Source: Candidatus Magasanikiibacteriota bacterium
GTDB lineage: Bacteria; Patescibacteriota; Patescibacteriia; Magasanikbacterales; GWA2-37-8
DNA: 64,000 nt
Assembly: GCA_016182085.1 (NCBI GenBank)
Contig: JACOYB010000006.1
Location: 88,980 to 152,979 of the forward strand
Direction of reading: 5' to 3'
In this document: positions 5,645 to 33,215 of the stretch, piece by piece
How positions within the stretch are numbered: position 1 is the first letter of the stretch
Layout of the letters: every line of letters begins with the position of its first letter
Notes under the pieces: generated by a model
Databases searched by the model: none
Told to the model about the DNA's origin: nothing
The model's input: the letters and a program-made list of their open reading frames with translations, nothing else
Position numbers and translations under genes: made by a program

Positions 5645-6433
5645 ATGTCAAAGAAAATGCCAACATTGTTGGAAATGCTTAAGGCCGGCGTTCATTTCGG
5701 CCATCAAAAATCACGCTGGCACCCGAAGATGGAACAATTCATCTTTGGTGTTAGAAACGGCGTGCATATTATTGATCTGGAGAAAACTCAGGCTCAAATT
5801 GAGAAAGCTCTAGAATATGTAAGAAACTTGGCCGCAAAGGGTCATGTTATTTTATTTGTGGGCACCAAACGTCAGGCCAGAGAAGCTATTCGCGCCGCGG
5901 CTATGTCTTGCGAAATGCCGTATTTGGTAGAACGCTGGATCGGCGGGCTTTTAACCAACTTTGAAGAAGTAAAACGCCGTTTGAAAAAGTATAAAAACTT
6001 GAAAGAAATGTTTGCCAGCGGTGAAATTGAAAAGTATACCAAAAAAGAACAGGTAGTAATGAAAAAACAATTAGATAAATTGGATAAGTACTTAATCGGT
6101 TTGACTGCTTTGGAAAAATTACCGGATGCAGTATATATTGCCGACATGAGAACTGAAAAAACAGCGCTCGCCGAAACCGAACGCACCGAAGTGCCAACCG
6201 TAGCCGTTTGCGACACCAACACCAATCCAAATAAAGTTAACTATCCGATTCCAGCTAACGATGATGCGGTAAACTCAATTACCATGATCGCTGATTTAAT
6301 TGCCGCAGCTGTAAATGAAGGCAAGAAAGAATTTGAAAAGAAAAAACTTGAAAAAGCTAAAGAAGAACCGGTTGTAAAACAACACGTAGAAAAAATTGAG
6401 AGACGAGCCTTGAAAAAAGAGGAGTCAGTCTAG
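5645..6433 (+). CDS. rpsB: 30S ribosomal protein S2
   Basis: LKAGVHFGHQ..RWHPKM..IFG.RNGVHIIDL signature. AGGAGG lies ~15 nt upstream of the ATG at 5645 (ORF track start 5600 is probably too far upstream). Charged KE-rich C-terminal tail. Confidence 0.9.
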   Translation: MSKKMPTLLEMLKAGVHFGHQKSRWHPKMEQFIFGVRNGVHIIDLEKTQAQIEKALEYVRNLAAKGHVILFVGTKRQAREAIRAAAMSCEMPYLVERWIGGLLTNFEEVKRRLKKYKNLKEMFASGEIEKYTKKEQVVMKKQLDKLDKYLIGLTALEKLPDAVYIADMRTEKTALAETERTEVPTVAVCDTNTNPNKVNYPIPANDDAVNSITMIADLIAAAVNEGKKEFEKKKLEKAKEEPVVKQHVEKIERRALKKEESV

Positions 6434-6539: not shown

Positions 6540-7412
6540 ATGTCAATCACAGCCGCAGATGTAGCCAAGCTCCGAACACTTACTGGCGCCGGTATGATGG
6601 ATTGCAAAAAAGCTTTGGACGAAGCAAACGGTGATATGGAAAAAGCCGGAGAAATTTTGCGTAAAAAAGGAATTGTGAAAGCTGCTAAAAGAACAGATAA
6701 AATCGCAGCTGAAGGCACCACCCAGGTAAAAGTAAATGGCGACACAGCTGTAGTTTTGGAAGTAAACTCCGAAACTGATTTTGTGGCGCAAAATGAAGAC
6801 TTCAAAAAGATGGTAGAAAATTTTGCCGATGCGCTGCTTGAGCAAAAACCGCAAAGTTTGGAGGGAGCCATGGCAGTTACCGCTGGAGGTAAAACCCTTC
6901 AGGAGCACTTGAACGATCTAACCGCTAAGATCGGTGAAAAGATTTCTTTGCGCCGTTTCATGGTAGTAGAGAAAACAGCTGGGGATGTTTTTGGCGCCTA
7001 TTCACATTTGGGCGGCAGGATTTCAGTGTTAGTAGTGCTAAAAAATAGTACTCACGCCGGTTTGGCTGCAGATATCGCCATGCACGCGGCTGCTTCTAAT
7101 CCAAAATATATAAGTCGCGATCAAGTTCCGGCAGGTATCGTAGAAAAGGAAAAGGAAATTTATGTTGAGCAGCTTAAGCAGCAGGGTAAGCCCGAAGCTG
7201 CCATCCCTAATATTTTAAAAGGCAAGTTAGATAAGTTCTATAGTGAAATTTGTCTGATGGAGCAAGCTTTTATTAAAGATGAGGAAAAAACCGTGCAAAA
7301 GTTATTAGGCGAGAGTATGTCTGTAGCCACAATGGTTCGCTTTGAATTGGGTGAAGGAATAGAGAAGGAAAAGACAGATTTTGCCGCCGAAGTGGAAGCG
7401 CAGCTGAAATAA
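6540..7412 (+). CDS. tsf: elongation factor Ts
   Basis: N-terminal UBA-like AxxVKxLRxxTGAGMMDCKKAL motif. Conserved rpsB-tsf gene order. Confidence 0.9.
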   Translation: MSITAADVAKLRTLTGAGMMDCKKALDEANGDMEKAGEILRKKGIVKAAKRTDKIAAEGTTQVKVNGDTAVVLEVNSETDFVAQNEDFKKMVENFADALLEQKPQSLEGAMAVTAGGKTLQEHLNDLTAKIGEKISLRRFMVVEKTAGDVFGAYSHLGGRISVLVVLKNSTHAGLAADIAMHAAASNPKYISRDQVPAGIVEKEKEIYVEQLKQQGKPEAAIPNILKGKLDKFYSEICLMEQAFIKDEEKTVQKLLGESMSVATMVRFELGEGIEKEKTDFAAEVEAQLK

Positions 7413-7425
7413 ATTTTTACTTTAA

Positions 7426-7462
7426 ATAAACCCTCGGGCTAACCGGGGGTTTATTTATATTT
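7426..7462 (+). terminator. rho-independent terminator after tsf
   Basis: AAACCCTCGGGCTAACCGGGGGTTT hairpin followed by a T-rich run. Confidence 0.5.
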
Positions 7463-7639
7463 TATTATTAGTTGAATTTAAGTTATCCACTGTTTTTATG
7501 TTGCAGAAGTTTTTTTTAAAAAAGTATGGTATACTAAAGCCAAATTAAATAACTTCTTCCAAAATGGCGCTTGTCACGTTTGTTATGGATTCTTAAAAGA
7601 AAAGGATTTTACCGATCCGGTTTTTTATTTTTTAAAAAT

Positions 7640-7751: not shown

Positions 7752-10700
7752 ATGGCGAAAAAAATTATCCAACATGTTTGGAAGAAAAAGATTGTCTATA
7801 TGCTGTCTGTTATGGCAGTGGCAGTAGGCGTAGGTTTTTATGCTTCTTTTTTTATAGGGAGAAGCGCAAGCGCCTTATCTGGCGTAACTTTAGCCGATAA
7901 TGATACTACCGGATTCGGGCTTGATGGCAGGGATTTTTCTATAACTTGGACTCCCGGTGATCAGCCTGCGGGATTTTTATATACCAAAATTTTTATTACC
8001 ACTAATACGGTTAATTTAACCACAAGCACAGCCGAAACTACCGCGTGCGCCGGATCCGCTTGTGTGCCGGTTGGCTATTTTAGCCAGTGGACTAATGCCG
8101 CCCATGTAGCACCTCAGTTTATGGGTACAGATAGTTCGGGTGTTGCCTGGAGAACCAGCACATCGTATGTAGCCTGGGTATTTGCTTCCACTACAGATCC
8201 AAATAATGCTTTATTAGTTTCCTCTACGGTTGTTTCTTATGCTAATACTTTTGATATTGTTTCTGATACAAGTAAACCGCAAATAGATCACAGCCCAGCG
8301 CATGTGGCGACAGCAAATAAAACCGCCTATTTTAATGCCTTTGTATTTGACGATCAGACTTCCGGCGCTAGTTTTGCCAGCACTTCTGTAGGTACAGAAT
8401 ATTTTAGACTGTTTTATACTTCCAGCACTAATCCGTGGTCATCTGTTAATTCCACTACCGGGCAGGCTTATTCCGGAGAATCAGATTTTTATAGTTTTCA
8501 AGTTCCTACCACTTCAATGGGCGCGGCTGGCGCAACATTCAAGTATTATTTAGTAGCCGCTGATGCGACCGGTAATACTCGTTATTTTTGCGCCAATCCA
8601 TCGGCAGCCAGCGCCACGGATTGTCAAAATAATCCCTTTACTCTTACTACCGTGTCAGCTGGATCAAGAACTGTGGGCGGTACTATCACCAGCGGCGGTT
8701 CCGCTTTAGGCAGCGCGTTTGTTTTTGCCGGCGGTTTTGCCAGCTCTTTGCCGGCAGTTCTTACCAATGGAAGTGGTGTTTATTCTCTTACGGCTTTGCC
8801 AAATAACGACGCTTTTGATATTGCCGCGCATAAGGTGGGTTATTGTCGCAGTATGCGTTTTGAAACTATTGGCACTACCGACAAAACCGGCGTGGATATG
8901 AGTTTGGGAAATAGCAGTTGTGGTTTTTATGATCCGGGTATGGGCGGAGGCGCGGGCGGCGCGCCGATGGTAATGTTTTCCGGACCTCCGGAAGGAATGC
9001 AAGGAGTGTCGGTTTCTGAAAGTATCCGTGTTGGTTTTAATCAGCCCATGGACGGAGCGACTATAAACGATACCAATGCCGCCGATAGTGGCAGTAATGT
9101 TTATTTAACTACCGATGATGGTACAACCAAAGTGGCCGGAACGGTAACTTACTGCGCCAGCAATGCTTCCGCCGGCTGTTCATCTTTGTTTTCAATGGAT
9201 AATAATACTATTTTATTTGTACCAAGCAGCACGCTTGCTTCCAGCACTTTTTATACGCTGGTTATTACCAGTGCGGTAAAAGGTCAGGGCGGTCAGTCGG
9301 TGCAAGGAAATGTTTCCGGTGGCGGCCATAAAATATCCTTTGGCACAAGCGGTGGCGCATTAAATATTGGTTCTTTTGGCACAAGCGGACAATTCATGCC
9401 TCCGTATGTAAAATCAATGACTCCGGCTCCAGGTATGACTGTAGGTGGTAACGTAAGTCTGACTGTAGAATTTAGCGAAGCTATGAGTTCGGCTTCAATT
9501 AATCAGACTAACGTCAGATTATTTAATATAACAAATGGGGCTAATACCGAAGTTACTTTGATTGGAAGTAATATTACTTTAGATTCTAACGAACGTCGTT
9601 TTGTAACCATTACTCACAGCGCGTTAAGCGCCGGGACTTACGAAGTCAGAGTTTTGGGTGCAGCAGCCAATGCCAGCGGTATAAGCATGCGTCCGCCCGC
9701 GAACGGTTCTGATATTGCTTTTAAGTCTTCCTTTATTGTGTCTGGTACTGATAACACTGTTCCAACTGTTTATCCTTCATTTGCTTCAGGGACAACTGGC
9801 ATGGCCGTAAATAATGTGTTTACCTTTGGTTTTAATGAACAGTTATTATTTAATACGGTTAATACTACGAATGTAACTTTATCTAGAGGAGCAACATCTG
9901 TGGGTGTCACCGTAAAATATGATTCCGGTTTAAATAATGTATTTGTTGTTCCAAACACCGCTTTGGTGCCAAATACAGTTTATACGTTGGTATTTAGTTC
10001 TTCCGTAACCGATGCGGCCAGCAATCGTTTGCCTACCAGTACCTATACCTATACAACCGGTGGCGGTGATACTGTAATTCCTATTCTTAAAGAAGCGCAA
10101 TGTGATGATTATACCTGTAAATTTTTCTTTACCGAACCAATGAATCACGCTTCACAAGTTGACGGTGCGACGTCTTGGGTGAGCAGCACTTTAAATCATT
10201 TAAGAATATCTCTAACTCAAGGCGGCGCAGATAAAATAGTTACTTCCACCGCCATGGCTTATGATTCAGTTAATTTTGTTATTACGGCCACCGGAGTCGG
10301 TTTAACACCTCTTAATGCAGGTGGCGCCAACTTTAGTGCAACTATTAGCGGCGTTGGAGATCTTTCCGGCAACGTAATGGCTTCTACCGTATTATCCGGG
10401 CCAGTTAAAGATAGTAAAGAAACTTTTGGTAATTTTGGCGGCGGTGGCATGTTTGCTCCTCCTACCACCGGATTCACCGGCGGCACAATTGGCGGTGGAG
10501 AATTCACACCAATGGGCTTTGGTTCCTTTACCGTTGATCAGTTTGCTTTTGGCCAGGCCGATATGGCGTTTCCCTTTAATTCAATGGCCAGCCAAGATGC
10601 GAATGTATTTCAAATAAAGTTTAACCCGGGAGTAGCTGTGGCCGCAGGAGATAAAGTAGTAATCACTTTTCCAGTTGGCACCGATGTTAATAGCGCTGGC

Positions 10701-13700
10701 CTTGATACATTCTCTCCTTTCTACGATGACTTTAATCAGTTTGCGGCAGGAATAGTAACTAGTACGGCGGTGGCAACAGATACCGTGTCTCGTAAAGTTA
10801 CCGTTACCTTGGGTGTTTCTGGTTCTCCCGCGCCTAATGATAGTTTAACCATTGATTTGCGCAAAATAATTAACCCAGCTATTCCAAAAGATCCTTCAAC
10901 TGGTGGTTATACAGTAACGATCCAACTTACAAATAATGCCGGAACTACTGTTAAGGCCAGTAAAACAAGCATGCCATACTTTATTATGGCCGGTGGTACC
11001 AATACTTTAAATGTACAAGTAGTTGCTGGTGTAAATACCAGCACCCCGACTGCTGGTGCCAATGGTACGGTATTCATGCACGGTGGCGGTCCGGCAGGCC
11101 CTATGGATAAAAGTATTACTCTTACCAACGGTGTGATATCAGCCATTGACGGAACATCCGCTACCGGTATTAATTTTACCAATCTACCCAACGGTTGTTA
11201 CTTCCTGGGTACAGATCCGTTTGTTACTTTAGGCACGTTAGATTACTTTGGTCAGATGTCGCCGGAACCAATTTGTCTAAACGGCAGTGTCTCCACCACT
11301 AAGTATATCTTGCTTTCCCCAGCCACTAGCGGTGGCGGTTCGGTAACGGCTACAATTAAATTTTCTGGCATTACCAACTTTAATGGCGCAGATATTGATA
11401 TTTTTGCCGGTGGTCCGGGAAGATTTGTGGTTAAAACTTTATCAGGAGTCACCACTACTTTAGCTGCCGGCTATGATATAAAATTACCTGCCAATGGCCA
11501 GTGGTTTATTGGTGTGGGGCCAGCTATGCCAAAGGGAGCTTCAGGAGGTAAGCCCGTATCCCTTCCTGGCGTGCCACCATCTCCTATAACGTTAGAAGTA
11601 AGTGGTTTAGGCGGTGGTACTCCGACTCTAAGTCGTCCGTCTTCAATGCCGCTCGCTTCAGGCGTGGCGTTTAATGATACTACGGATATAATTACTTTTA
11701 GTTTTGCCACGGCGGATAAAGTAGTTACCGGAACAGTTAAAGATGGTGCCGGAAATGTATTATCAAGCATTGAAGTCTTTATGCATAGACAAGGTTTTGG
11801 CGCGCCTGTATTTGGCATAACCAATGCTTCCGGTACATTTAATTTATCCGTATCCGATTATGGATTATATGAAATAGGCGTGTTCAAAGACGGAATGCCG
11901 CCTTCCTTCAAGCAATTGGAAGTTAAGACAGATGGATCTGATGCCGACAGCAATCCGGATATATTCTTGCAAGGTAAACAAATAACGGGTTCCAATCCTT
12001 TGGTTTTGACTCTGAAAAAAGCTAATTATACAATCTCAGGTAAAGTTTTGGATTCCAGTAATAGTGCGGTAAGCTATGCTCCGGTTTTTGCTTCGGATGG
12101 TTCCGGCAATAGTGTGTTCGGACAAACAGGGTCTGATGGTAGTTATTCAGTATTTGTGGATGCTGGTACTTGGACAATTAGAGCAGAACTTCCTCCAAGC
12201 AAGACAGGTGATACTTGCGGAACATTCTCAAAGACCGTAACAGTAACTACCGAAAGTCAGTCCAGCCAAAATATTACTCCATCAACCGCCACCTGTTACA
12301 CATTAAGCGGAAGCGTGACAGTTGGTTCTGTTAACTTAAGTAATACGCCTATCTTTATTGAGGAGTGGGATGACGGAAGTAACAAGCCGGTACAAGGTGG
12401 TATAAAAAGAGGAACAGTTACAGATTCAAATGGCGCTTATTCAGCAAAAGTTATAGGCAGTAAAACCTACCGTATCGGCACGGTTGATCCTACCTATGGA
12501 GAATTGAGCGCAACTAAAGGGGTGGTGTCATCTGATGCAACTCAAAATATTTCAGTTGCTTCAACAAGCACAGTTAGCTTCGTATTTACTGGTGGAACAG
12601 CTAGTATGAACGGATTTATTGAATTAAAGAATACAAGCGATAAAACAAAGCGCGTGACCAAGCAAGTGACTGGTTTAAATACTACCACCGCACTCACAGT
12701 AGAAGCCTCTGTTACGTACAATTATTTTGTGGATGTATTCGGTGTCGGGAGGTTTACCGGAGAAGTGGTAGCTGGTAATACAGCTACCGTAAATCTCGGT
12801 GTTTCAGCCAATGCATTTATTACGGTTACCGGAACTATTTATAGTAACGAAACCGTATCTTCTACAGTCTTAGCAGGAACACTGGTTACATTCTTTAGTT
12901 CCAGTACTGGCATAACGCAAACTGCCACAGCTAATGCTAGCGGTACGTATAGTATAAATATCAAGGCTGGTACATATGAGGTTTCCGCGGATATTGCCAA
13001 CTATCTTCCTGGCCAAGCAGCTCAAATAACATCCTTTACTACAACTACTCCGGCCTACGACTTTGGTGGCGCAAGTCCAGATCAAGGATCCTTAATTGCT
13101 TCCAACCGTACTATAGAAGGATATGTTAGTAGTTCCGCCGGTGCCACGATTACTGATGGCTATGCCTGGGCAACGAACGCTTCCGGCACAGTCGTAACTG
13201 CAGCCATAGATTCAACCGGACGCTATTCATTGCCTGTAACGGATGGCAGTTGGACAGTAGAAGCTGTAGCAGCCGGTGCGTCCGAGACTACCAAATCTGG
13301 TGCAGTAACTATTTCTGGTTCAGATTCAGCAAATAATAATTTTGCTTTAACAAACGATGGTAGTCGTATAGCTACGTCTACAAGTGGCATAGTAGCAGCC
13401 AGTTCCGGAGGATCGGTTAATGATACAACCGGTACAGGAATTAAGATTTCAGCCGGGCAGGGAGTTTTGGAAACCGGTTCAGGAGATGTCTCAATAAGTT
13501 TAGAAAAAACCTTTACCGCGCCAGATACTAGTGGTTTTGATGCGTTAGCTAATGCAACCTTTAAAATATCTGCAACCGGTGATTCTACAATTAAGGACCT
13601 AAATGGCAACGCCGAAATTCAATTGGATTATTCGGCGATGGTCAGTCAAATCCCAAGCGGAGTTGCCGAGGCTGATTTGAAATTAATGTACTATTCAGCG

Positions 13701-14528
13701 GAAAAAGGAGACTATGTGCCGGTAGAAGGCGGGTTTACAATTGATGCAACCAACAATACTATTACCGGACAGGTAAACCACCTTACCGATTTCGTAATTG
13801 CCTACGATCCTCCAGCAGCTGCAGCCGCAGCCGCAAGCACAGGCAGTTCCGGCACCGCTGCCGGCGGGATGGCTTCGCCTGTACCTGCCGCACAAGCCAC
13901 TACTAGCTCTGTAGTTGTAAATACTGTCACTACCACTGCTTCCACATTGCCAGTCACAAATAAAATAGATAGCTCTAAAGCTTATGGTTCGGCTCCATCC
14001 GTTTCGGTTAAGGTGTTATTTATTCATAACTTGGGAATGGGATCAAAAGGCGAAGAAGTCAGACAGTTGCAAGCTAAACTTAGAGAATTAGGCTTCTTCA
14101 AGCATCCAACCAACACTGGATTATTCGGGCCAGCTACCAAAGCTGCAGTGGTAGCATTCCAAAAGGCACGAGGATTAAAACCTTACCCGGGCACGCTCGG
14201 ACCTGCTACCAGAGCAGCGCTGAATAGTTTGACAGAACCAAGCGAATCTCTAGTAGTTCCGCCAGTATCAACAGACTCAAGTTTGTTGCCGGCAGGATCT
14301 ACGGCAGGAGTATTTGTCAGCGCTTTGAAGCTCGGCTCTAAAGGAGAAGAAGTCAGGCAGCTGCAAGCTAAACTTAGAGAGTTAGGTTTCTTCACTTATC
14401 CTAATGACACGGGGGTATTCGGACCAGCTACCAAAGCGGCAGTTGTAGCCTTCCAAAAGGCGCAGGGATTAAAACCTTATCCGGGCTGGGTTGGTCCAGG
14501 CACGCGCGCCGCGCTAAACAGTCTCTAA
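7752..14528 (+). CDS. giant (2258 aa) cell-surface protein: N-terminal signal anchor, many Ig-like/Big and carboxypeptidase-regulatory-like beta-sandwich repeats, poly-Ala/Thr linker, two C-terminal peptidoglycan-binding (PG_binding_1-like) domains
   Basis: One uninterrupted 6.8-kb ORF. Thr/Ser/Gly/Val-rich beta-strand periodicity. Two C-terminal copies of SKGEEVRQLQAKLRELGFF...G.FGPATKAAV.AFQKA.GL, the three-helix PG-binding fold motif. Confidence 0.8.
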   Translation: MAKKIIQHVWKKKIVYMLSVMAVAVGVGFYASFFIGRSASALSGVTLADNDTTGFGLDGRDFSITWTPGDQPAGFLYTKIFITTNTVNLTTSTAETTACAGSACVPVGYFSQWTNAAHVAPQFMGTDSSGVAWRTSTSYVAWVFASTTDPNNALLVSSTVVSYANTFDIVSDTSKPQIDHSPAHVATANKTAYFNAFVFDDQTSGASFASTSVGTEYFRLFYTSSTNPWSSVNSTTGQAYSGESDFYSFQVPTTSMGAAGATFKYYLVAADATGNTRYFCANPSAASATDCQNNPFTLTTVSAGSRTVGGTITSGGSALGSAFVFAGGFASSLPAVLTNGSGVYSLTALPNNDAFDIAAHKVGYCRSMRFETIGTTDKTGVDMSLGNSSCGFYDPGMGGGAGGAPMVMFSGPPEGMQGVSVSESIRVGFNQPMDGATINDTNAADSGSNVYLTTDDGTTKVAGTVTYCASNASAGCSSLFSMDNNTILFVPSSTLASSTFYTLVITSAVKGQGGQSVQGNVSGGGHKISFGTSGGALNIGSFGTSGQFMPPYVKSMTPAPGMTVGGNVSLTVEFSEAMSSASINQTNVRLFNITNGANTEVTLIGSNITLDSNERRFVTITHSALSAGTYEVRVLGAAANASGISMRPPANGSDIAFKSSFIVSGTDNTVPTVYPSFASGTTGMAVNNVFTFGFNEQLLFNTVNTTNVTLSRGATSVGVTVKYDSGLNNVFVVPNTALVPNTVYTLVFSSSVTDAASNRLPTSTYTYTTGGGDTVIPILKEAQCDDYTCKFFFTEPMNHASQVDGATSWVSSTLNHLRISLTQGGADKIVTSTAMAYDSVNFVITATGVGLTPLNAGGANFSATISGVGDLSGNVMASTVLSGPVKDSKETFGNFGGGGMFAPPTTGFTGGTIGGGEFTPMGFGSFTVDQFAFGQADMAFPFNSMASQDANVFQIKFNPGVAVAAGDKVVITFPVGTDVNSAGLDTFSPFYDDFNQFAAGIVTSTAVATDTVSRKVTVTLGVSGSPAPNDSLTIDLRKIINPAIPKDPSTGGYTVTIQLTNNAGTTVKASKTSMPYFIMAGGTNTLNVQVVAGVNTSTPTAGANGTVFMHGGGPAGPMDKSITLTNGVISAIDGTSATGINFTNLPNGCYFLGTDPFVTLGTLDYFGQMSPEPICLNGSVSTTKYILLSPATSGGGSVTATIKFSGITNFNGADIDIFAGGPGRFVVKTLSGVTTTLAAGYDIKLPANGQWFIGVGPAMPKGASGGKPVSLPGVPPSPITLEVSGLGGGTPTLSRPSSMPLASGVAFNDTTDIITFSFATADKVVTGTVKDGAGNVLSSIEVFMHRQGFGAPVFGITNASGTFNLSVSDYGLYEIGVFKDGMPPSFKQLEVKTDGSDADSNPDIFLQGKQITGSNPLVLTLKKANYTISGKVLDSSNSAVSYAPVFASDGSGNSVFGQTGSDGSYSVFVDAGTWTIRAELPPSKTGDTCGTFSKTVTVTTESQSSQNITPSTATCYTLSGSVTVGSVNLSNTPIFIEEWDDGSNKPVQGGIKRGTVTDSNGAYSAKVIGSKTYRIGTVDPTYGELSATKGVVSSDATQNISVASTSTVSFVFTGGTASMNGFIELKNTSDKTKRVTKQVTGLNTTTALTVEASVTYNYFVDVFGVGRFTGEVVAGNTATVNLGVSANAFITVTGTIYSNETVSSTVLAGTLVTFFSSSTGITQTATANASGTYSINIKAGTYEVSADIANYLPGQAAQITSFTTTTPAYDFGGASPDQGSLIASNRTIEGYVSSSAGATITDGYAWATNASGTVVTAAIDSTGRYSLPVTDGSWTVEAVAAGASETTKSGAVTISGSDSANNNFALTNDGSRIATSTSGIVAASSGGSVNDTTGTGIKISAGQGVLETGSGDVSISLEKTFTAPDTSGFDALANATFKISATGDSTIKDLNGNAEIQLDYSAMVSQIPSGVAEADLKLMYYSAEKGDYVPVEGGFTIDATNNTITGQVNHLTDFVIAYDPPAAAAAAASTGSSGTAAGGMASPVPAAQATTSSVVVNTVTTTASTLPVTNKIDSSKAYGSAPSVSVKVLFIHNLGMGSKGEEVRQLQAKLRELGFFKHPTNTGLFGPATKAAVVAFQKARGLKPYPGTLGPATRAALNSLTEPSESLVVPPVSTDSSLLPAGSTAGVFVSALKLGSKGEEVRQLQAKLRELGFFTYPNDTGVFGPATKAAVVAFQKAQGLKPYPGWVGPGTRAALNSL
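14011..14525 (+). repeat. tandem pair of PG-binding-domain coding modules (copy set 1)
   Basis: The 14080-14230 and 14361-14525 modules are highly similar to each other and to 16209-16360 and 16453-16619 at nucleotide level. Confidence 0.6.
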
Positions 14529-14744: not shown

Positions 14745-16622
14745 ATGGAATTGTCTTCTCTGCAAAAAAAGATGAGCGCATCCAAAATGTTGGTGCTCGC
14801 TTTTTTAGTCGGACTTTTAAGTCTGATCCTTTTAGTTTTCAATGCCCAAGCTGCGCCAGTGGCGCCAACCGGCACTCCGACCACTACGGTTTTAACAGCA
14901 CAGACTATTATGATCGGCGGTATTACCAGCGGCGCTAGTGACAGCGGTTTAAACTGGTCTTTTGCCACTTCTTTAAATAATGTTACCAGAACAATTGTTA
15001 ATGTAACTACCCCTACCACCACAAAACAATTTACATTTACCGGTTTAGCTACCAACACATTATACTATTTGGCTGTAGCCTCAGGCGATGGCGCGGCCAC
15101 TTCCAGTTATGCTACTTCTTCGGCTGTTTATACCCTAGCTGATACTCCCGGTTCTCCAACTCTTTCCACTGCGGCTGTGCAGGGTTTTAAAGTAACAATT
15201 AATTCTTCCTCCAACCCTTCAAATACTACCTATATTGTTCGTGATACGGTATCCTCCACCCTTACCAAGTACTTGCAATCAGATCAGACATGGGGAAATG
15301 CAACGGCCACATTTACTTATGCCCAACTTGGAGGTTTAAGCGGTACGACTACTGCTGGTTTAGCTACAAATACTTTGCACAGAATTAGTGTCGCAGCGGT
15401 TAATGGCGACGCTGTTACTACCACGTATAGTTCTACAGTTGATTTTTATACCCTTGCCGCAACTCCCGGCACCGCCACAGTTACTTCCAGCGCGGTAACT
15501 ACATTAAATGTTACTGTCAATGCCGGCACTAATCCTACAACCGCTTCCACAACCTTTATAGTAAAAGATACCGGTTCAACATTGCTTTATCTTCAGTCCA
15601 ATGGAACTTGGGGTTCTGCTACGGCTACGCTTACTTATGCCCAACTTGGCTCAGGAAGCGCCACTACGACCACTGGTTTGACTGCCAATACTTTACACAC
15701 TATCAGTGTGGCTGCGGTCAATGGAGACAGTTCTGCTACTACCAGTTATAGCACTGTCGCCAGTTCTTACACGCTCGCCAACACTCCGTCTTCCGTATCT
15801 TTATCAGCGGCGGCAAATGGTTTTAACTTAACTTGGAGCGGGGATGCTACCCAATACTATGTAGAAGATGAAACTGCAGGCTCAAACTCCGGATGGATCA
15901 CCGCAACAACATATTCAGTGGGGGGTATTAATTGCGGAACTTCGCGCACCTTCCGAGTTAAAGGAAGAAATGGAGATACTACAGATACTGCGTTTGCCAC
16001 ATCTGTTAGCGCCACTACCAATGCTTGTGGAGGAGGTGTTGCGGTAGCTGTCCCTGCCACTCCGGCTACACCTGCCACGCCTGCTGTGCCCGGCGTTTCT
16101 CCCGCTGTCCCTGCCACCCCAGCTTCAGTTTCCTTACCGCCTACCGCTTCTCCGGTTGCCGTCTTTGTTCATACTTTGCGCGCAGGTACAAGAGGTGGGG
16201 AAGTTAAACAGCTACAACAAAAACTTAGAGAGTTAGGTTTCTTCAAATATTCTAGCAATACCGGCTTGTTTGGGGCTATTACCAAAGCCGCAGTCGTATC
16301 TTTCCAGAAAGATCAAGGACTAACTCCTTCCGGCGTAGTTGATGCAGCCACACGAGACGCTCTTAATGGAGTAAGCGCTACGGCCCCTCAAGCAGCTGTT
16401 GGTCAGTTTGTAAGTAGTCTCGCTGTTGGTTCCAGAGGCGAGGAAGTAAGAATGTTGCAAGCCAAATTACGAGAATTAGGCTACTTTACTTATCCAACCG
16501 ACACCGGTGTATTTGGCCCCGCTACCCGAGCCGCAGTACAAGCGTTTCAAAGAGCGCAAGGGCTGGCTCCATTTCCAGGATTTGTTGGTCCGGGCACGCG
16601 CGCCGCGTTAAACAATCTCTAA
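14745..16622 (+). CDS. secreted surface protein with four FN3-like ~110-aa repeats, Pro/Ala/Thr linker and two C-terminal PG-binding domains
   Basis: Signal peptide (MELSSLQKKMSASKMLVLAFLVGLLSLILLVFNAQA). Four YTLA.TPG...L..ISVAAVNGD repeats. (ATP)n linker. C-terminal anchor paralogous to that of the giant protein. Confidence 0.75.
   Translation: MELSSLQKKMSASKMLVLAFLVGLLSLILLVFNAQAAPVAPTGTPTTTVLTAQTIMIGGITSGASDSGLNWSFATSLNNVTRTIVNVTTPTTTKQFTFTGLATNTLYYLAVASGDGAATSSYATSSAVYTLADTPGSPTLSTAAVQGFKVTINSSSNPSNTTYIVRDTVSSTLTKYLQSDQTWGNATATFTYAQLGGLSGTTTAGLATNTLHRISVAAVNGDAVTTTYSSTVDFYTLAATPGTATVTSSAVTTLNVTVNAGTNPTTASTTFIVKDTGSTLLYLQSNGTWGSATATLTYAQLGSGSATTTTGLTANTLHTISVAAVNGDSSATTSYSTVASSYTLANTPSSVSLSAAANGFNLTWSGDATQYYVEDETAGSNSGWITATTYSVGGINCGTSRTFRVKGRNGDTTDTAFATSVSATTNACGGGVAVAVPATPATPATPAVPGVSPAVPATPASVSLPPTASPVAVFVHTLRAGTRGGEVKQLQQKLRELGFFKYSSNTGLFGAITKAAVVSFQKDQGLTPSGVVDAATRDALNGVSATAPQAAVGQFVSSLAVGSRGEEVRMLQAKLRELGYFTYPTDTGVFGPATRAAVQAFQRAQGLAPFPGFVGPGTRAALNNL
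16155..16619 (+). repeat. tandem pair of PG-binding-domain coding modules (copy set 2)
   Basis: Shares long identical nucleotide runs (e.g. AAACTTAGAGAGTTAGGTTTCTTCA, GGTCCNGGCACGCGCGCCGCG) with 14011-14525. Confidence 0.6.
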
Positions 16623-28046: not shown

Positions 28047-29603
28047 ATGGCTATAAAAAAACTTAGAACAACTCTTTTAGTAATTGTAGACGGTTGGGGC
28101 GTAGGCAACAGTGAGGAACCGGGGAATCCAATTACTCCAAAAAGCGCCCCTAATTATTTTTCGTTTTTGAAAAAATACCCAAATTGTCAGCTGGAAGCCA
28201 GTGGTTTAAGCGTGGGCTTATTCAAAGGCCAAGAAGGCAATAGTGAAGCCGGCCATTTGAATTTGGGGGCGGGAAGAGTAGTAAAACAAGACGCGCTGTA
28301 TATATCCGACTCAATCGCCGATGGCACATTTTTTAAAAACAGCGTTTTTCAGCAGGCGATCAGTCAGGTAAAAAAATATAAATCGTCAGTTCATTTAATG
28401 GGATTACTTTCCAATCACAATAGCGCGCACTCTTGTCCGGAACATGCATACGCTTTGTTGGATTTATTACATAGAGAAAATATAGAAAAAGTTTATTTGC
28501 ATCTTTTTACGGACGGCAGGGACTCCGGGCAATTTGAAGCGCATAAACACTTAAGACTGTTGAAGAAATTTTTTCATGGAAACGAGAAAGTAGCCACTGT
28601 TATGGGGCGATTCTATGCCATGGATAGAAATAAAAATTGGGAACGAACAGGGGCCGCCTATAAAGCTATGGTGTTGGGACAGGGGCAAAAATTTGCTAGC
28701 GCCGAAGAAGCGCTCAGAAATTCCTATAACAGCGAAGAAACTGATGAGTTTTTACAGCCCAGCGTTATTACCGAGAAAGGGCGTCCGGTAGCGACCATAA
28801 AAGAAAATGACGCGCTTATATTTTTTAATTTACGCAGCGATCGCGCCCGCCAGCTTACCAAAGCGTTTGTGCAGCCAAATTTTAAAGAAGTTAATCCCGG
28901 AGCGTTTAATAGAACTAAGCAAATAAAAAATCTTAACTTTGTCGCTTTAACCGATTTTGGCCCCGATTTGCCGGGAGTAGTGTCCGCGTTTCCCAGTCGT
29001 GACGTAAAAAAGAGTTTAGTGCAAGTTTTATGTCCCCGCAAACAACTATACTTAGCCGAATCAGAGAAGTTCGCTCACGTTACCTATTTTTTGAACGGAG
29101 GTTATGCGCAGCATTTTTGCGATGAAAACTGGGTAAAAATAGATTCGGATGATGTGAAAAATTATGCGAGTAAACCGGAAATGAGCGCGGAACGACTGAC
29201 TGATTATGTCATAAACGCCATTGAGTCTGGAAATTACGAATTTATTGCGATGAATTTTGCCAATATGGATATGGTGGGTCATACGGGCAATTTTGCGGCT
29301 GCGCAAAAGGCAGTGAGCGCCGTAGATGCGGCTCTAGGCCGGATTGTAAAAGCTTTGCTTAAAAATCAGGGGCAGGGTATCATAACGGCCGATCATGGCA
29401 ATATTGAAGTAATGATAAATCCAGAAAGCGGCGAACCGGACACTGAACATTCAACCAATCCGGTGCCGTTTATCTTGATAAATAGCTGGATTAAAACCCC
29501 GGACAAATTACCTGATGGAAAATTGGCAAATGTCGCGCCGACTGTTTTGAAAATGATGGGGGTTGATAAGCCAGTTGAGATGACTGCCAAGAGCCTTATT
29601 TAG
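28047..29603 (+). CDS. gpmI: 2,3-bisphosphoglycerate-independent phosphoglycerate mutase (copy 1)
   Basis: VIVDGWG...NSE.GHLN.GAGR N-terminal metalloenzyme motifs and C-terminal ADHGN phosphatase-domain motif. Confidence 0.85.
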   Translation: MAIKKLRTTLLVIVDGWGVGNSEEPGNPITPKSAPNYFSFLKKYPNCQLEASGLSVGLFKGQEGNSEAGHLNLGAGRVVKQDALYISDSIADGTFFKNSVFQQAISQVKKYKSSVHLMGLLSNHNSAHSCPEHAYALLDLLHRENIEKVYLHLFTDGRDSGQFEAHKHLRLLKKFFHGNEKVATVMGRFYAMDRNKNWERTGAAYKAMVLGQGQKFASAEEALRNSYNSEETDEFLQPSVITEKGRPVATIKENDALIFFNLRSDRARQLTKAFVQPNFKEVNPGAFNRTKQIKNLNFVALTDFGPDLPGVVSAFPSRDVKKSLVQVLCPRKQLYLAESEKFAHVTYFLNGGYAQHFCDENWVKIDSDDVKNYASKPEMSAERLTDYVINAIESGNYEFIAMNFANMDMVGHTGNFAAAQKAVSAVDAALGRIVKALLKNQGQGIITADHGNIEVMINPESGEPDTEHSTNPVPFILINSWIKTPDKLPDGKLANVAPTVLKMMGVDKPVEMTAKSLI

Positions 29604-29623: not shown

Positions 29624-31201
29624 ATGAGTTATAAACCTGTAGTACTAATAATTATGGATGGTTGGGGGATTGCTCCGCATGTTGATGGCAATGCGATTAC
29701 AAAAGCTGATACACCCAACCTGAATAAATTTTTGAAGAATTATCCGACCATGACTATTCACGCTTCTGGAAATGAGGTGGGACTTATGTTTGGAGAAATG
29801 GGAAATTCCGAAGTGGGCCACCTAAATATTGGCGCGGGCCGTGTGTACTATCAAAGTTGTCCAAGAATAAACCGGGCCATAGATGACAGTAGTTTTTTTG
29901 AAATACCGGCATTTTTACAGGCCCTGGAAAGAGTAAAACAAAATAATTCAAGTTTGCATTTGGTGGGGCTTGTTAGTTCCGGCAATGTTCATTCCAGCAA
30001 TCAGCACCTGTACGCGCTTTTGGAGTTATGCAAAAAGCAAAAATTAACAAAAAATGTTTTTATTCATGCGGTTCTAGACGGCCGCGATGCTTTGTATAAT
30101 TCCGGAAAGGAATTTATTTCCGAATTACAGCAAAAAATTTCCGAAATAAAAGTAGGAAAAATTGCAACACTATCCGGTCGCTACTTTGCCATGGACAGAG
30201 ATAATCGCTGGGACAGATGCGAAAAAGCGTATCGCGCTATTGCCGAAGGCAAAGCTGATCGCTACGCCGAAGACCCGATAAAAGTAATTGATGAATCTTA
30301 TGCTCAGAAAAATTATGATGAAGAGTTTGTCCCCACGGTTTTAACTTCCAAAAATAAACCAGTGGCAACGATTGCCAAAGATGATGCGGTAATTTTCTTT
30401 AATTTCAGACCGGATCGCGCCAGAGAGTTGGCCGAAGCCTTTGCCGTGCCGTCTTTTAATAAATTTTCCAAAGAGTATTTGAAAGATTTGCTCGTTGTAA
30501 CCATGACCGAATATGAAAAAGATTTACCAGTGGCGGTAGCTTTTGCGCCGGTGGTGGTTCATAATTCTCTTGCCGAAGTTATCAGTAAAGCCGGGCTCAA
30601 ACAAATACATGTGGCGGAAACGGAAAAATACGCGCACGTTACTTTCTTTTTAAATGGTACCGTAGAGGCGCCATTTCCCGGCGAAGACCGATTGCTCATT
30701 CCATCAGCGCGGGTTGCCAGTTATGACCAAAAACCAGAGATGTCAGCTCCGGAAATTACCAAAGAAGTAAACAAAATAATAGACCGCGGCAAGTATGATT
30801 TTATAGTTTTAAATCTTGCCAATGCCGATATGGTAGGGCATACGGGCGATTTGCAGGCTGGAATCAAAGCCTGTGAGATAATCGATAAATGTTTGGGGGA
30901 AATAATTGATCATGCCTTGGCGCAAAACGGAGCCGTAGCGATAACTGCCGATCATGGCAATGCCGAAGAGATGAAAAATTTACAGACTGGCGAAATAGAT
31001 AAAGAACATTCTACCAACCCAGTACCGCTTATTATTATCAGCAAAGATTTCTTGGGCCAAGCTGGCCCGTCCGGAGATCCGCCCGAGGGCGACCTTAGTT
31101 TAATGCAACCGGTGGGTATTTTGGCCGATGTCGCGCCAACTGTTTTAAAATTACTGGGTATTGATCAGCCAGAAGACATGACCGGGCAGGCTTTGATTTA
31201 G
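29624..31201 (+). CDS. gpmI: 2,3-bisphosphoglycerate-independent phosphoglycerate mutase (copy 2, diverged tandem paralog)
   Basis: Same motif set (IMDGWG, NSEVGHLNIGAGR, ADHGNAE). Clearly diverged from copy 1 at protein and DNA level. Confidence 0.85.
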   Translation: MSYKPVVLIIMDGWGIAPHVDGNAITKADTPNLNKFLKNYPTMTIHASGNEVGLMFGEMGNSEVGHLNIGAGRVYYQSCPRINRAIDDSSFFEIPAFLQALERVKQNNSSLHLVGLVSSGNVHSSNQHLYALLELCKKQKLTKNVFIHAVLDGRDALYNSGKEFISELQQKISEIKVGKIATLSGRYFAMDRDNRWDRCEKAYRAIAEGKADRYAEDPIKVIDESYAQKNYDEEFVPTVLTSKNKPVATIAKDDAVIFFNFRPDRARELAEAFAVPSFNKFSKEYLKDLLVVTMTEYEKDLPVAVAFAPVVVHNSLAEVISKAGLKQIHVAETEKYAHVTFFLNGTVEAPFPGEDRLLIPSARVASYDQKPEMSAPEITKEVNKIIDRGKYDFIVLNLANADMVGHTGDLQAGIKACEIIDKCLGEIIDHALAQNGAVAITADHGNAEEMKNLQTGEIDKEHSTNPVPLIIISKDFLGQAGPSGDPPEGDLSLMQPVGILADVAPTVLKLLGIDQPEDMTGQALI

Positions 31202-31425
31202 CTTAATTTAGCAAAAATAATATAAAAAAGCCTTGACAAGAAGGTTTTTTTGTGATATCATTTTTTATTCAATAATAACTGTCCTTTATAAATAAGAGCC
31301 TTTATTCTAGCTTATTTTAAATAAAAAATAATTTATAATGAAGGCTGGTATACCAGATCTTCCTCTTTGCCATGGTGGTAAGGAGTAAACCCTTTACAAA
31401 AAGGGTAGATAGAAAGGAAGCCGCT

Positions 31426-31926
31426 ATGAAGAGCGTCTTTCGCACATTGGCACATTTACAGGAGCAGCTCGGTGAGCAGTGCTTTGCGGAGCTGTTGAGT
31501 TCAGACAACACTCGCGCTGTACGGAAGTTCGCCATCAAGCTGGCTTTAGCGAAACTCCCTACCGAGATCACTCTTGGTCGGCGTAGGTACGAAGTCCTCA
31601 GCTTCCACAAGCCAGGGGAAGAAGAGTATGTCGACAGTGATACCATGGTCAGCAGGACTGCAGAGATGAATGCCAGCCTCGATGCCAAGGAGCGACGGTA
31701 TATCCTCAAACATCAGGCTGATTTCCCTCCAGAATGCCGTATCGTTAGTTTCTTCTTCACTAACGACTTCCGGCTGGGTTCTGCGCCAGCGTGGTCAAAG
31801 GAGCGTCCGAAGCAGATGTGTAGCATCGGCTGGAGCTACGGTTCGGATTCCTGGCTTGAGAGTTGGCAGCCCCTGGAAGGCAGGGTGTACGATGTGAATT
31901 GTCAAGTTCTCCGTCCTAAGATGTGA
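31426..31926 (+). CDS. hypothetical protein encoded on a high-G+C island
   Basis: ORF track 31372..31926. AAAGGAAG SD lies 6 nt before the ATG at 31426. Composition is strikingly more G+C-rich than all neighbours. No recognisable domain. Confidence 0.45.
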   Translation: MKSVFRTLAHLQEQLGEQCFAELLSSDNTRAVRKFAIKLALAKLPTEITLGRRRYEVLSFHKPGEEEYVDSDTMVSRTAEMNASLDAKERRYILKHQADFPPECRIVSFFFTNDFRLGSAPAWSKERPKQMCSIGWSYGSDSWLESWQPLEGRVYDVNCQVLRPKM

Positions 31927-31955
31927 ACAGTTGGTACCAAGCGGAGAGCCTTTAC

Positions 31956-32017
31956 AGTTCGCCGCCCAACACCACTTTGTAAGGATAAATTATTTTTATA
32001 AAGTGGTGCGGCGAACT
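31956..32017. repeat. long imperfect hairpin (18-bp stem, AGTTCGCCGC..CACCACTTT / AAAGTGGTGCGGCGAACT) bounding the GC island
   Basis: Read directly. Followed by a second short bidirectional terminator at 32029-32060. Confidence 0.5.
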
Positions 32018-32069
32018 TTAATTATATAAAAAGACCCCGAATATATCGAGGTCTTTTTATATTAAAATT

Positions 32070-33215
32070 TTAAATATTACCAAGTGCCTTCTTAATCTTT
32101 TCAATAATTTCTATCTCAACCTCTTTAATAGTTTTATTATTTAACGCAAATGTCGCGGTTTTTTTGTTCCCTTCCGACTGCAGTCCTTGTAAAAGTATTT
32201 TGGCATCATGGTGACGATCGGCATACAAAAAGCCGTGAATTTTGTTTTCTGCGCCCATGTCTTCGTATAGGAGTAAAATAATTTTTGCTTCCGGAGAATT
32301 ATGTATGAGTTCTTCGGTTAGTCCGCGCAGTTCTTCTTGGGTAGCGCCGGCTCGGGAAAAATCATCCCTCGTAATAGTTGTCCAAACTAGTCCTAGTTTG
32401 GGGTCATTTTGCATATGGGTTAGCGCGGTGCCCCAAATGCGAAGTGAAGCGATAGATTTAGTGCGGTAGAGGTTTTTAACAATCTTTTCTCTGTCTGCGC
32501 CCAGCGTTATGAGTTTGCTGGCAATGCTAAGCGTGGCCGGGCTTACATTGGCGGTTTTAAAACTTTGAGTTTGGCTAATCATGCCAGTTAGCAGCAGGGT
32601 AGCAATCTCGGCATCAATATCATGTTCAAATAATTGGGCGATAGTTTTATAAATATTTTCAGTTATGGCCGTACTATTTAAATCCACGAAATTGATTTGT
32701 CCGAAATGTTCGTTGCCCGGGTGATTATCAAAATTGATTACCGGTACTTTATAAAATAAATCCGTGTTATTAAAAAAAACATTCCCTAAGGATGCCAAAT
32801 CTTGGGAGTTTAAGACGATAATTAGATCATATTTTAATCCGGACTGAGCCGTGCGCAGTTCGTTTTTGGTAATGATGCCTTGTTTGGGCGTCAAATAAAT
32901 TGATAGCCAATTATCTTTAATATCATAGCTTAGGGTATCAATCTTAACATTACTAACGTCAACTTTGAGGATAAATTTTTGTAAATGGGAAAGTTGCGGC
33001 TGGATTCCTTCCAGGCCTTTAAGGAAGTTAAGGTTTTTTGGCACGACAAAACCGCTCGCGACAATATCAACCTGCTTGCGGTGTTTTTCAAGCAGTTTTT
33101 TAAGCGCCACACCGCCACAGATCGAATCAGTATTGTGATTGGCACTCGTTACTATCAAAATATGCTGGCTTTTTTCAACAGCTTGTCGTAATTGTTCAAT
33201 TTCGTTAAGAGCCAT
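32070..33215 (-). CDS. DHH-family phosphoesterase (NrnA-like), divergent
   Basis: VINFDNHPGNE resembles DHH motif III. N-terminal Asp-rich motifs present. DHHA1 GGGH not evident. Confidence 0.45.
   Translation of the reverse strand: MALNEIEQLRQAVEKSQHILIVTSANHNTDSICGGVALKKLLEKHRKQVDIVASGFVVPKNLNFLKGLEGIQPQLSHLQKFILKVDVSNVKIDTLSYDIKDNWLSIYLTPKQGIITKNELRTAQSGLKYDLIIVLNSQDLASLGNVFFNNTDLFYKVPVINFDNHPGNEHFGQINFVDLNSTAITENIYKTIAQLFEHDIDAEIATLLLTGMISQTQSFKTANVSPATLSIASKLITLGADREKIVKNLYRTKSIASLRIWGTALTHMQNDPKLGLVWTTITRDDFSRAGATQEELRGLTEELIHNSPEAKIILLLYEDMGAENKIHGFLYADRHHDAKILLQGLQSEGNKKTATFALNNKTIKEVEIEIIEKIKKALGNI

Follow-up and report, generated by a model that had tools for sequence, protein, structure and literature searches.

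Several variable proteins of diversity-generating retroelements (DGRs) are known to have a lectin fold; for example, Mtd of a Bordetella phage, TvpA of Treponema, the archaeal AvpA and TaqVP of Thermus. In the candidate phyla radiation (CPR, or Patescibacteria), DGR targets are abundant, largely uncharacterised in function and not covered by curated models. Known domains are usually lacking in them, and new variants of the lectin fold are suspected (PMC8144416; PMC5758913); the absence of a signal peptide and a transmembrane segment, together with that of a known domain, has been reported (PMC8144416). In this study, a stretch of 64,000 nucleotides (the window) from a metagenome-assembled genome (MAG) of Candidatus Magasanikbacteria (contig JACOYB010000006.1, positions 88,980 to 152,979) was analyzed. 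The G+C-rich open reading frame (ORF) ORF166 (locus HYT15_03730) is highlighted and discussed. ORF166 is probably a solitary member, without a reverse transcriptase (RT), of a family of DGR targets in the CPR/Patescibacteria, preceded by a structured leader and located at a junction that is a hot spot for small cargo.

The family of ORF166 resembles the lectin-fold variable proteins in its C-terminal variable repeat (VR), a template repeat (TR) from which the VR differs at adenines only and the adjacent genes for RT and Avd (arranged as target, TR, Avd on the minus strand and RT on the plus strand), and its modelled domain is weakly lectin-like. Like the CPR targets of Roux et al. 2021 (clade 2) and Wu et al. 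2018 ('UVR'), the family lacks a signal peptide, a transmembrane segment and any known domain. In contrast to the usual DGR variable proteins, ORF166 has a decayed VR and is without a TR, RT or Avd within 64 kb, while the family as a whole is mostly solitary, has an excess of G+C at third codon positions (GC3) throughout the gene and possesses a dedicated structured leader. Neither the whole-gene GC3 excess nor the structured leader is described in the DGR literature searched. ORF166 can also be compared with remote targets, such as the seven targets of Treponema denticola, as it lies far from any RT found. However, these targets match their TR except at adenines, whereas ORF166 departs from the family TRs at non-adenine positions and in length.

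The protein family and its diversification

The following features of the gene are used throughout the text:

31414 to 31420, plus strand: Shine-Dalgarno (SD) sequence AAGGAAG, upstream of ORF166
31426 to 31926, plus strand: ORF166, 166 aa; residues 1-43 form a predicted N-terminal three-helix segment and residues 44-166 a predicted C-type-lectin-like alpha/beta domain (AlphaFold2, Foldseek)
31765 to 31920, plus strand: segment equivalent to the VR, residues 114-165, with boundaries taken from the loci L040 and L009; decayed relative to the family TRs

A preliminary description of the window had stated that this region encodes one protein of 166 aa with no recognisable domain. The ORF was confirmed, with the family alignment favouring the 166-aa start over an upstream start that gives 184 aa, and Pfam gave no match. 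A word-indexed search returned only ORF166 itself, but its apparent orphan status was overturned by an exhaustive phmmer search against 1.84 billion representatives, in which 182 proteins were found at E <= 1e-3 and 46 at E <= 1e-10 (all counts being cluster representatives). The proteins are typically 150-165 aa long, and their alignments contain a conserved N-terminal helical segment followed by a domain of ~120 aa that ends in W-x-W-x-RxLRRK. Several members (P0122, with 517 aa, and P0123-P0128) have 2-4 tandem C-terminal lectin-like domains behind a single N-terminal segment. No model for the family is present in Pfam, NCBIfam, PHROGs or PADLOC, and a sequence profile search of the PDB was also empty.

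The family is carried by 34 loci in GTDB genomes, from Magasanik-, Falkow-, Uhr- and Buchananbacteria, 'Patescibacteria' and third-party-annotation (TPA) MAGs with doubtful titles, and its members are apparently all in the CPR/Patescibacteria. Many of these TPA MAGs (L013, L015-L017, L020, L022-L024 and others; L numbers designate the loci compared) are titled 'uncultured Gammaproteobacteria bacterium'; their loci are CPR-like and the titles are probably unreliable.

At three loci, L009, L040 and L127, a family member is targeted by an intact DGR. In the Falkowbacteria locus L009, bAvd and an RVT_1 reverse transcriptase come after the family gene. The VR consists of the last 40 codons, a TR copy lies 475 nt downstream, and the differences between the two are mostly at TR adenines; the TR/VR pair with bAvd and RVT_1 is found in L009/L018. 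In L040, from Parcubacteria, the VR (6210-6334) and the TR (7387-7511) differ by 19 A-to-N changes and no others, and Avd and RT adjoin the target and the TR. In L127, the single viral contig in IMG/VR that bears the family, the order is target, TR, Avd on the minus strand and RT on the plus strand. ORF166 is homologous to these demonstrated targets, with 35% identity to the target of L127 (tblastn, E = 2e-21) and 39% to P0287, the target of L009. The family can with high confidence be regarded as bona fide DGR target proteins, with ORF166 as a member. The family is compact (~155 aa) and gives clean examples of TR/VR pairs among the CPR targets.

Most members are solitary, as ~30 of the 34 GTDB loci have no RT within 6 kb. 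Most of them have nevertheless kept a VR for which alignment to a foreign TR needs no gaps, and the mismatches are enriched at adenines. Over 13 VRs of equal length, mostly from solitary members, positions that are adenine in the TR have an entropy of 1.31 bits, compared with 0.65 bits for the others. That most copies are without an RT raises the question of whether they are targets in trans or descendants with a fixed specificity. Directly downstream of two otherwise solitary family genes, tblastn detected short stretches similar to RT (E about 1e-7; L023:5455-5568 and L026:6549-6653), which suggests decayed DGR cassettes. One family locus neighbours a ParE/RHH pair. The otherwise identical contigs L010 and L011 differ just upstream of the family gene, where 100 nt (L010:7620-7719) are replaced by 666 nt (L011:3542-4207). 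This indel was considered as a model for cassette mobility and dropped, as its 159-aa ORF is outside the family.

The fold of ORF166 was modelled with AlphaFold2; the full-length model has a predicted local distance difference test (pLDDT) score of 90.9, and the model of the domain alone one of 92.9. In a Foldseek search of the PDB with the domain model, the top 11 matches were all C-type lectin domains, with a probability of up to 0.95, a TM score of 0.48 and a weak E of about 0.04, and the full-length model had the same outcome. The modelled domain is weakly indicated to be C-type-lectin-like.

The variable segment and solitary state of ORF166

In relatives, the last ~50 residues of the lectin-like domain would be the surface that is rewritten by adenine-specific mutagenesis from the TR. 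In ORF166, this segment has diverged strongly. Compared with the TR of L040, it has 71 matches, 14 mismatches at adenine sites, 36 mismatches at non-adenine sites and 6 gaps, which makes it the worst of 32 members; the others have 10-31 non-adenine mismatches and 0-7 gaps. In the protein alignment, insertions of 7, 2 and 1 residues are present inside the VR.

No RT or Avd was detected in the window by tblastn with two RTs and two Avds (best E = 0.09), and no Y[AV]DD motif was found in its six frames. A TR-like, adenine-tolerant copy of the 3' end of ORF166 was also not found in the 64 kb (loose thresholds gave A-rich noise alone, and a stricter version of the scan was adopted), nor was a paralogue from the family. 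Variation of the VR was not seen either, as two further sequencing runs gave contigs with 100% identity to the window over 13,956 and 1,118 nt. ORF166 has retained the scaffold tryptophans, the C-terminal LR.K, the promoter, the leader and the SD, and since the tryptophans, promoter, leader and SD are intact, the gene is probably functional.

Because of the indels in the VR, the substitutions at non-adenine sites and the absence of a TR, RT and Avd within 64 kb, ORF166 is most likely a copy that is no longer diversified. It would be a 'frozen' ligand-binding protein with a fixed specificity, an interpretation that is held with moderate confidence.

A structured leader RNA upstream of the family genes

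BLASTN searches with the spacer to the left of ORF166 gave matches upstream of family genes in other organisms, with an identity of 75-87%, while the proteins are just ~40% identical. Alignment of 23 upstream regions revealed a motif of ~140 nt with four helices, which extends up to the start codon. In the window, the leader comprises the following features:

31281 to 31425, plus strand: structured 5' leader with helices P1-P4 and the SD site (covariance model, covariation, fold)
31297 to 31346, plus strand: P1 (arms 31297-31318 and 31325-31346), a 13-bp helix in the family, with 9 of 13 consensus pairs changed on both sides
31340 to 31362, plus strand: P2, an alternative helix GAAGGCU ... AUCUUC, whose 5' arm is the 3' arm of P1 (GAAGGCC in the family)
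31363 to 31385, plus strand: P3, CUCUUUGCC-loop-GGYRAGGAG, with the SD-like GAGGAG paired to a CCUC tract
31389 to 31406, plus strand: P4, ACCCUUU-ACAA-AAAGGGU, directly before the real SD, with 6 of 7 pairs changed on both sides

In a model-based alignment of 24 sequences, 88.1% of the cells pair, compared with 52-62% when the partner is slid. Changes on both sides occur in 17 of 29 leader pairs, which was equalled by none of 500 shuffles, and the covariation score is 0.338 versus at most 0.166 after sliding. A MAFFT alignment gave similar results. P3 is nearly invariant (CUCUUUGCC-loop-GGCGAGGAG), with 99% of the cells paired in the 24 sequences. For P2, 88.8% of the cells are paired versus 38-70% with the partner slid, and its covariation score was attained by 13 of 500 shuffles; the support for this helix is moderate. 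The minimum free energy fold of the leader in the window contains P1, P3 and P4 (z = -3.9).

The covariance model, R1, matches the window at 31281-31428 with 92.8 bits (E about 1e-17). Over 918 kb, every match with E < 1e-6 ends at the start codon of a family gene, and the matches include L036, L029 and L045, which were all outside the training set. The leader is a candidate new RNA motif, with a conserved structure that is backed by covariation and found at a fixed position upstream of one gene family. It has no match in Rfam 15, where a search of 31150-32120 on both strands gave at most 26 bits versus gathering scores of 43-144, which is noise. The preliminary description had drawn attention to the perfect palindrome CTGGTATACCAG (31345-31356). 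It is present, and in the subtype of the window it forms the tip of P2 (CUGG-UAUA-CCAG). As a bare palindrome it is unremarkable, with 29 perfect 12-bp palindromes in the window versus 18 +/- 4 after shuffling, and it belongs to the conserved leader.

P1 and P2 are mutually exclusive and the SD-like tract is sequestered in P3, and the leader is therefore probably a translational control element. In this respect it is like SD-sequestering riboregulators and riboswitch platforms, with covarying helices, exclusive pairings and an SD-like tract in a helix. Unlike these, it falls outside the Rfam 15 families, and it is located upstream of the target gene, while the motifs RT-1 to RT-19 (Weinberg et al. 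2017) are near RT genes. The gene and the ~140-nt leader form a unit in which the leader would control translation. The covarying leader offers a first experimental handle on the expression control of a hypervariable protein. A strong SD unlike that of most neighbours had already been pointed out for ORF166, in agreement with an SD core of at least 4 nt in only 7 of 43 crudely called genes of the window. The host genome appears to be SD-poor; in the family leader, a strong SD is accompanied by a decoy SD-like tract.

The gpmI/DHH junction as a hot spot for small cargo

ORF166 is a single gene flanked by two convergent housekeeping genes, the second of two paralogues of 2,3-bisphosphoglycerate-independent phosphoglycerate mutase (iPGM; gpmI) and a gene for a DHH phosphoesterase. 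The features of this junction are:

31202 to 32069, plus strand: 868-bp segment exactly between the stop codons of gpmI (31199-31201) and DHH (32070-32072), missing in the closest relative
31233 to 31261, plus strand: sigma-70-type promoter, TTGACA, 17 nt with TG, TATCAT, with 11 of 12 consensus matches, for the leader and ORF166
31956 to 32017, no strand assigned: long imperfect hairpin of 10 bp, a 5-nt bulge and 12-17 bp, starting 30 nt after the ORF166 stop
32024 to 32062, no strand assigned: bidirectional terminator-like hairpin, preceded by an A-run and followed by a T-run, 17-nt arms that are 94% complementary, common to ORF166 and DHH
31295 to 31304, plus strand: direct repeat AGAGCCTTTA, copy 1, a 10-mer with two occurrences in the window
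31945 to 31954, plus strand: direct repeat AGAGCCTTTA, copy 2, 19 nt past the ORF166 stop

Relatives were gathered through DHH homologues. In the closest one, L003, both flanking genes are 96-97% identical to those in the window, and the stop codons of gpmI and DHH overlap by 4 bp with nothing in between. The same 4-bp overlap and empty site are found in L007 and L008, and gpmI and DHH abut in at least 35 further metagenomic relatives, with a DHH identity of 47-77%. No homologue of ORF166 was found at this junction among the relatives examined. The preliminary description had proposed a recent acquisition that could be checked through an empty site and would be contradicted by conservation of the protein at this position in relatives. 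As a difference in presence and absence, the recent gain is supported by the synteny, the empty site of L003 and the abutting genes, and the contradicting conservation was not seen.

In other relatives, the same gap is occupied by different cargo. DGR cassettes are present in exactly this gap in L006:7155-9746 (complete), L049:6158-7186, L053:1919-2146 and L061:6172-7075, and the target of the L006 cassette is a protein of 215 aa from another family. Other cargo includes an 85-aa ORF in L004:7209-7466 (also in L047), a 155-aa ORF with raised G+C in L054:6282-6749, a 156-aa ORF in L066:3386-3856 and a 345-aa PEP-utilizers protein in L079:6166-7203. In the Magasanikbacteria relatives, the gpmI/DHH junction is a recurrent cargo hot spot. 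No BLASTP similarity was found between ORF166 and either the 215-aa target of L006 or the 85-aa ORF of L004, and with hhalign only the VR segment of the L006 target was aligned, with a probability of 6%. In a distant relative, the same junction (L100:6329-6529 and downstream) holds an ORF interrupted by a stop codon that by eye resembles an Avd-like four-helix bundle; tblastn with two Avds was silent there.

A promoter straight after the gpmI stop, with TTGACA, 17 nt and a TATAAT-like hexamer, is common to the occupied sites of the window, L006, L004 and L054, and the TG before the second hexamer is present in the window, L006 and L004. In the window, this promoter would drive the leader-ORF166 unit. 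The identity between the window and L003 decreases to 87-92% over the last 200 nt of gpmI and to 68% over the final 60 nt of DHH, a stretch in which the window and L004 share 80%. This arrangement is like that of flexible genomic islets, which involve recombination in conserved flanks, in that varied cargo and an empty allele occur at one junction and a divergent tract runs into the ends of the flanking genes. Unlike in such islets, the cargo is very small (0.3-2.9 kb), repeatedly consists of DGR cassettes and is without an integrase or tRNA anchor. Homologous recombination with a relative most likely introduced the occupied allele once the lineage of the window had separated from L003, the closest sequenced relative.

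The preliminary description had also placed the gene between bracketing inverted repeats, with an 18-bp-stem hairpin on the right and with flanks that hold promoter and terminator signals of the neighbouring genes. The hairpin is real, as the DNA of 31927-32069 folds with -32.9 kcal/mol (z = -8.2), although it has no clean 18-bp stem. The bracketing itself does not stand, as the left palindrome and the right hairpin are two independent self-complementary elements and not inverted copies of each other. On the right, the terminator-like hairpin is shared with DHH, and the left spacer holds more than neighbouring signals, as it contains the promoter and leader of ORF166 itself. No second copy of the hairpin at 31956-32017 or of the palindromes was found in the window that would mark a repeated element. 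As unrelated cargo at the junction is likewise followed by long hairpins (L054 and L066), the one at 31956-32017 is probably a terminator.

Marks of mobility were not found in the 868 bp, neither an integrase or transposase nor terminal inverted repeats or a significant target-site duplication. The direct repeat AGAGCCTTTA is suggestive and at chance level, as about 0.45 such repeats are expected in the region. A perfect 10-bp palindrome, TTGGTACCAA, is located at 31931-31940, 5 nt past the ORF166 stop. It shares TGGTA/TACCA half-sites with CTGGTATACCAG, with too few occurrences for an assessment.

Weighing of the explanations

Several points weigh against the explanation of ORF166 as a frozen, solitary family member at a hot spot. 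The complete cassette at this junction, in L006, targets another family, and the hhalign match to its target is the 6% on the VR alone. The lectin match is weak (E about 0.04, TM below 0.5), and a structure of a DGR variable protein is absent among the Foldseek matches listed. ORF166 is also more than a decaying gene, given that LR.K, the tryptophans, promoter, leader and SD have all been kept. The MAG is incomplete, and the search for an RT and TR covered 64 kb of a contig of 160 kb, so these may lie at a distance, and remote DGR targets have been documented (PMC5758913). In addition, the function of the leader is deduced from its structure, and a gain in the window is preferred to a loss in L003 by parsimony, the loss being less parsimonious.

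One rival possibility is that ORF166 is an active remote target, in which a distant RT, Avd and TR rewrite 31765-31920 and the hairpin at 31956-32017 serves as the inverted repeat of the target site. Remote targets and GC-rich inverted repeats downstream of the VR are known DGR features (PMC5758913), and ORF166 has a strong hairpin 30 nt past its stop. In DGR targets, an IMH element is also expected just past the VR, and it is defined through the TR. The many family loci without an RT within 6 kb (~30 of 34), whose VRs are mostly gapless with adenine-enriched mismatches, also fit this explanation. However, the VR of ORF166 itself, with its 6 gaps and 36 non-adenine mismatches, is the worst of 32, no TR was found in the 64 kb and three assemblies are identical. 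The hairpin is likelier a terminator, since the cargo of L054 and L066 has similar ones, and DGRs in the CPR are reported to target mostly one adjacent gene (PMC5758913), which also counts against a remote one. An active remote target is considered unlikely.

A different possibility is that ORF166 is the remnant of a DGR cassette at the junction, which lost its TR, Avd and RT through deletion in place. DGR RTs, with or without Avd, are present in this very gap in L006, L049, L053 and L061, the window shares the promoter that drives the target gene of L006, and the solitary family genes of L023 and L026 are followed by RT fragments. On the other hand, the sole complete cassette here, that of L006, targets the 215-aa protein of a different family, the 143 nt from the ORF166 stop to the DHH stop hold no RT or Avd remnant, and the site is empty in the nearest relative. 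A deletion in place is a doubtful explanation for this locus.

Base composition

The markedly higher G+C content that first drew attention to ORF166 was borne out by windowed analysis. The gene has 53.3% G+C, compared with 41.1% for the whole window and a mean of 41.0% (sd 4.0) for 501-nt windows. Its value is attained in just 0.16% of the 501-nt windows, and the peak of the 64 kb, with 54.3%, starts at 31467. By codon position, the G+C of ORF166 is 0.54/0.43/0.62 versus 0.49/0.38/0.38 for the long ORFs of the host, and the signal is therefore of the coding type.

This composition was taken in the preliminary description as a sign of recent horizontal acquisition. In the family, however, the G+C of the gene exceeds that of its host locus without exception (37 of 37; L013-L046, L009, L010 and L127), with a mean offset of +16.9 points (sd 5.7), and the G+C of gene and host are correlated (r = 0.51) over hosts with 30-50% G+C. 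The offset of ORF166, +12 points, is under the family mean. The mean GC3 excess over the host is 0.34, and in L020 GC3 is 0.85 versus 0.19. The excess spans the entire gene, with a GC3 of 0.70 outside the VR and 0.77 within it. The unrelated target of L006 (L006:9099-9746) is also GC3-rich (0.61 versus 0.38), while RT and Avd genes are at host composition. An adenine-specific depletion was considered as the cause and rejected, as A3 and T3 (A and T at third codon positions) are both about halved outside the VR and the A3/T3 ratio is 0.70 versus 0.90 in the host, a mild difference.

High G+C is an intrinsic trait of the family. As it is present in all family genes and scales with the host, it neither dates a transfer nor points to a donor. 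With an offset of +17 points (+0.34 in GC3), composition alone would mislabel all family genes as freshly transferred.

A broader proposal can be put forward tentatively. The leader may represent an undescribed class of riboregulator for the variable proteins of CPR DGRs, with a P1/P2 switch and a decoy SD; the GC3 excess of the targets would be a mechanistic or selected hallmark, and the RT-less members a frozen or trans-diversified reservoir. If this is true, the GC3 excess of the targets is no trace of transfer.

The preliminary description had interpreted ORF166 as generic, recently transferred cargo of a toxin, defence or phage type that is foreign by composition. Its atypical composition, the empty site in close relatives, the member on an IMG/VR contig and the ParE/RHH pair next to one family gene are in line with this. 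Nevertheless, the best PADLOC match has E = 0.044 at 11 bits, PHROGs gave none and IMG/VR holds a single contig with the family. No partner gene, integrase or terminal repeats were found, the high G+C is universal in the family and correlated with the host, and the family is demonstrably a DGR target. Such cargo is therefore very improbable, and a DGR target takes its place. Finally, G+C-rich islands in A+T-rich genomes are often RNA genes, but a structured non-coding RNA instead of a protein gene is effectively refuted here by the silence of Rfam on both strands, the periodic codon-position G+C, the 182 protein homologues and the confident AlphaFold2 model, and the structured RNA found is the A+T-rich leader and not the G+C-rich part.

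Neighbouring genes and other observations

The two iPGM paralogues (28047-29603 and 29624-31201) are arranged in tandem after enolase and are ~41% identical, and this duplication is kept in all close relatives examined. A second G+C peak of the window, with 53.1% at about 15700, lies inside the gene for a 625-aa protein (14745-16622). This protein and one of 2258 aa (7752-14528) are rich in Thr, Ala and Ser and have repeated C-terminal modules in common (…GEEVRQLQAKLRELGFF…), which may resemble peptidoglycan-binding domains.

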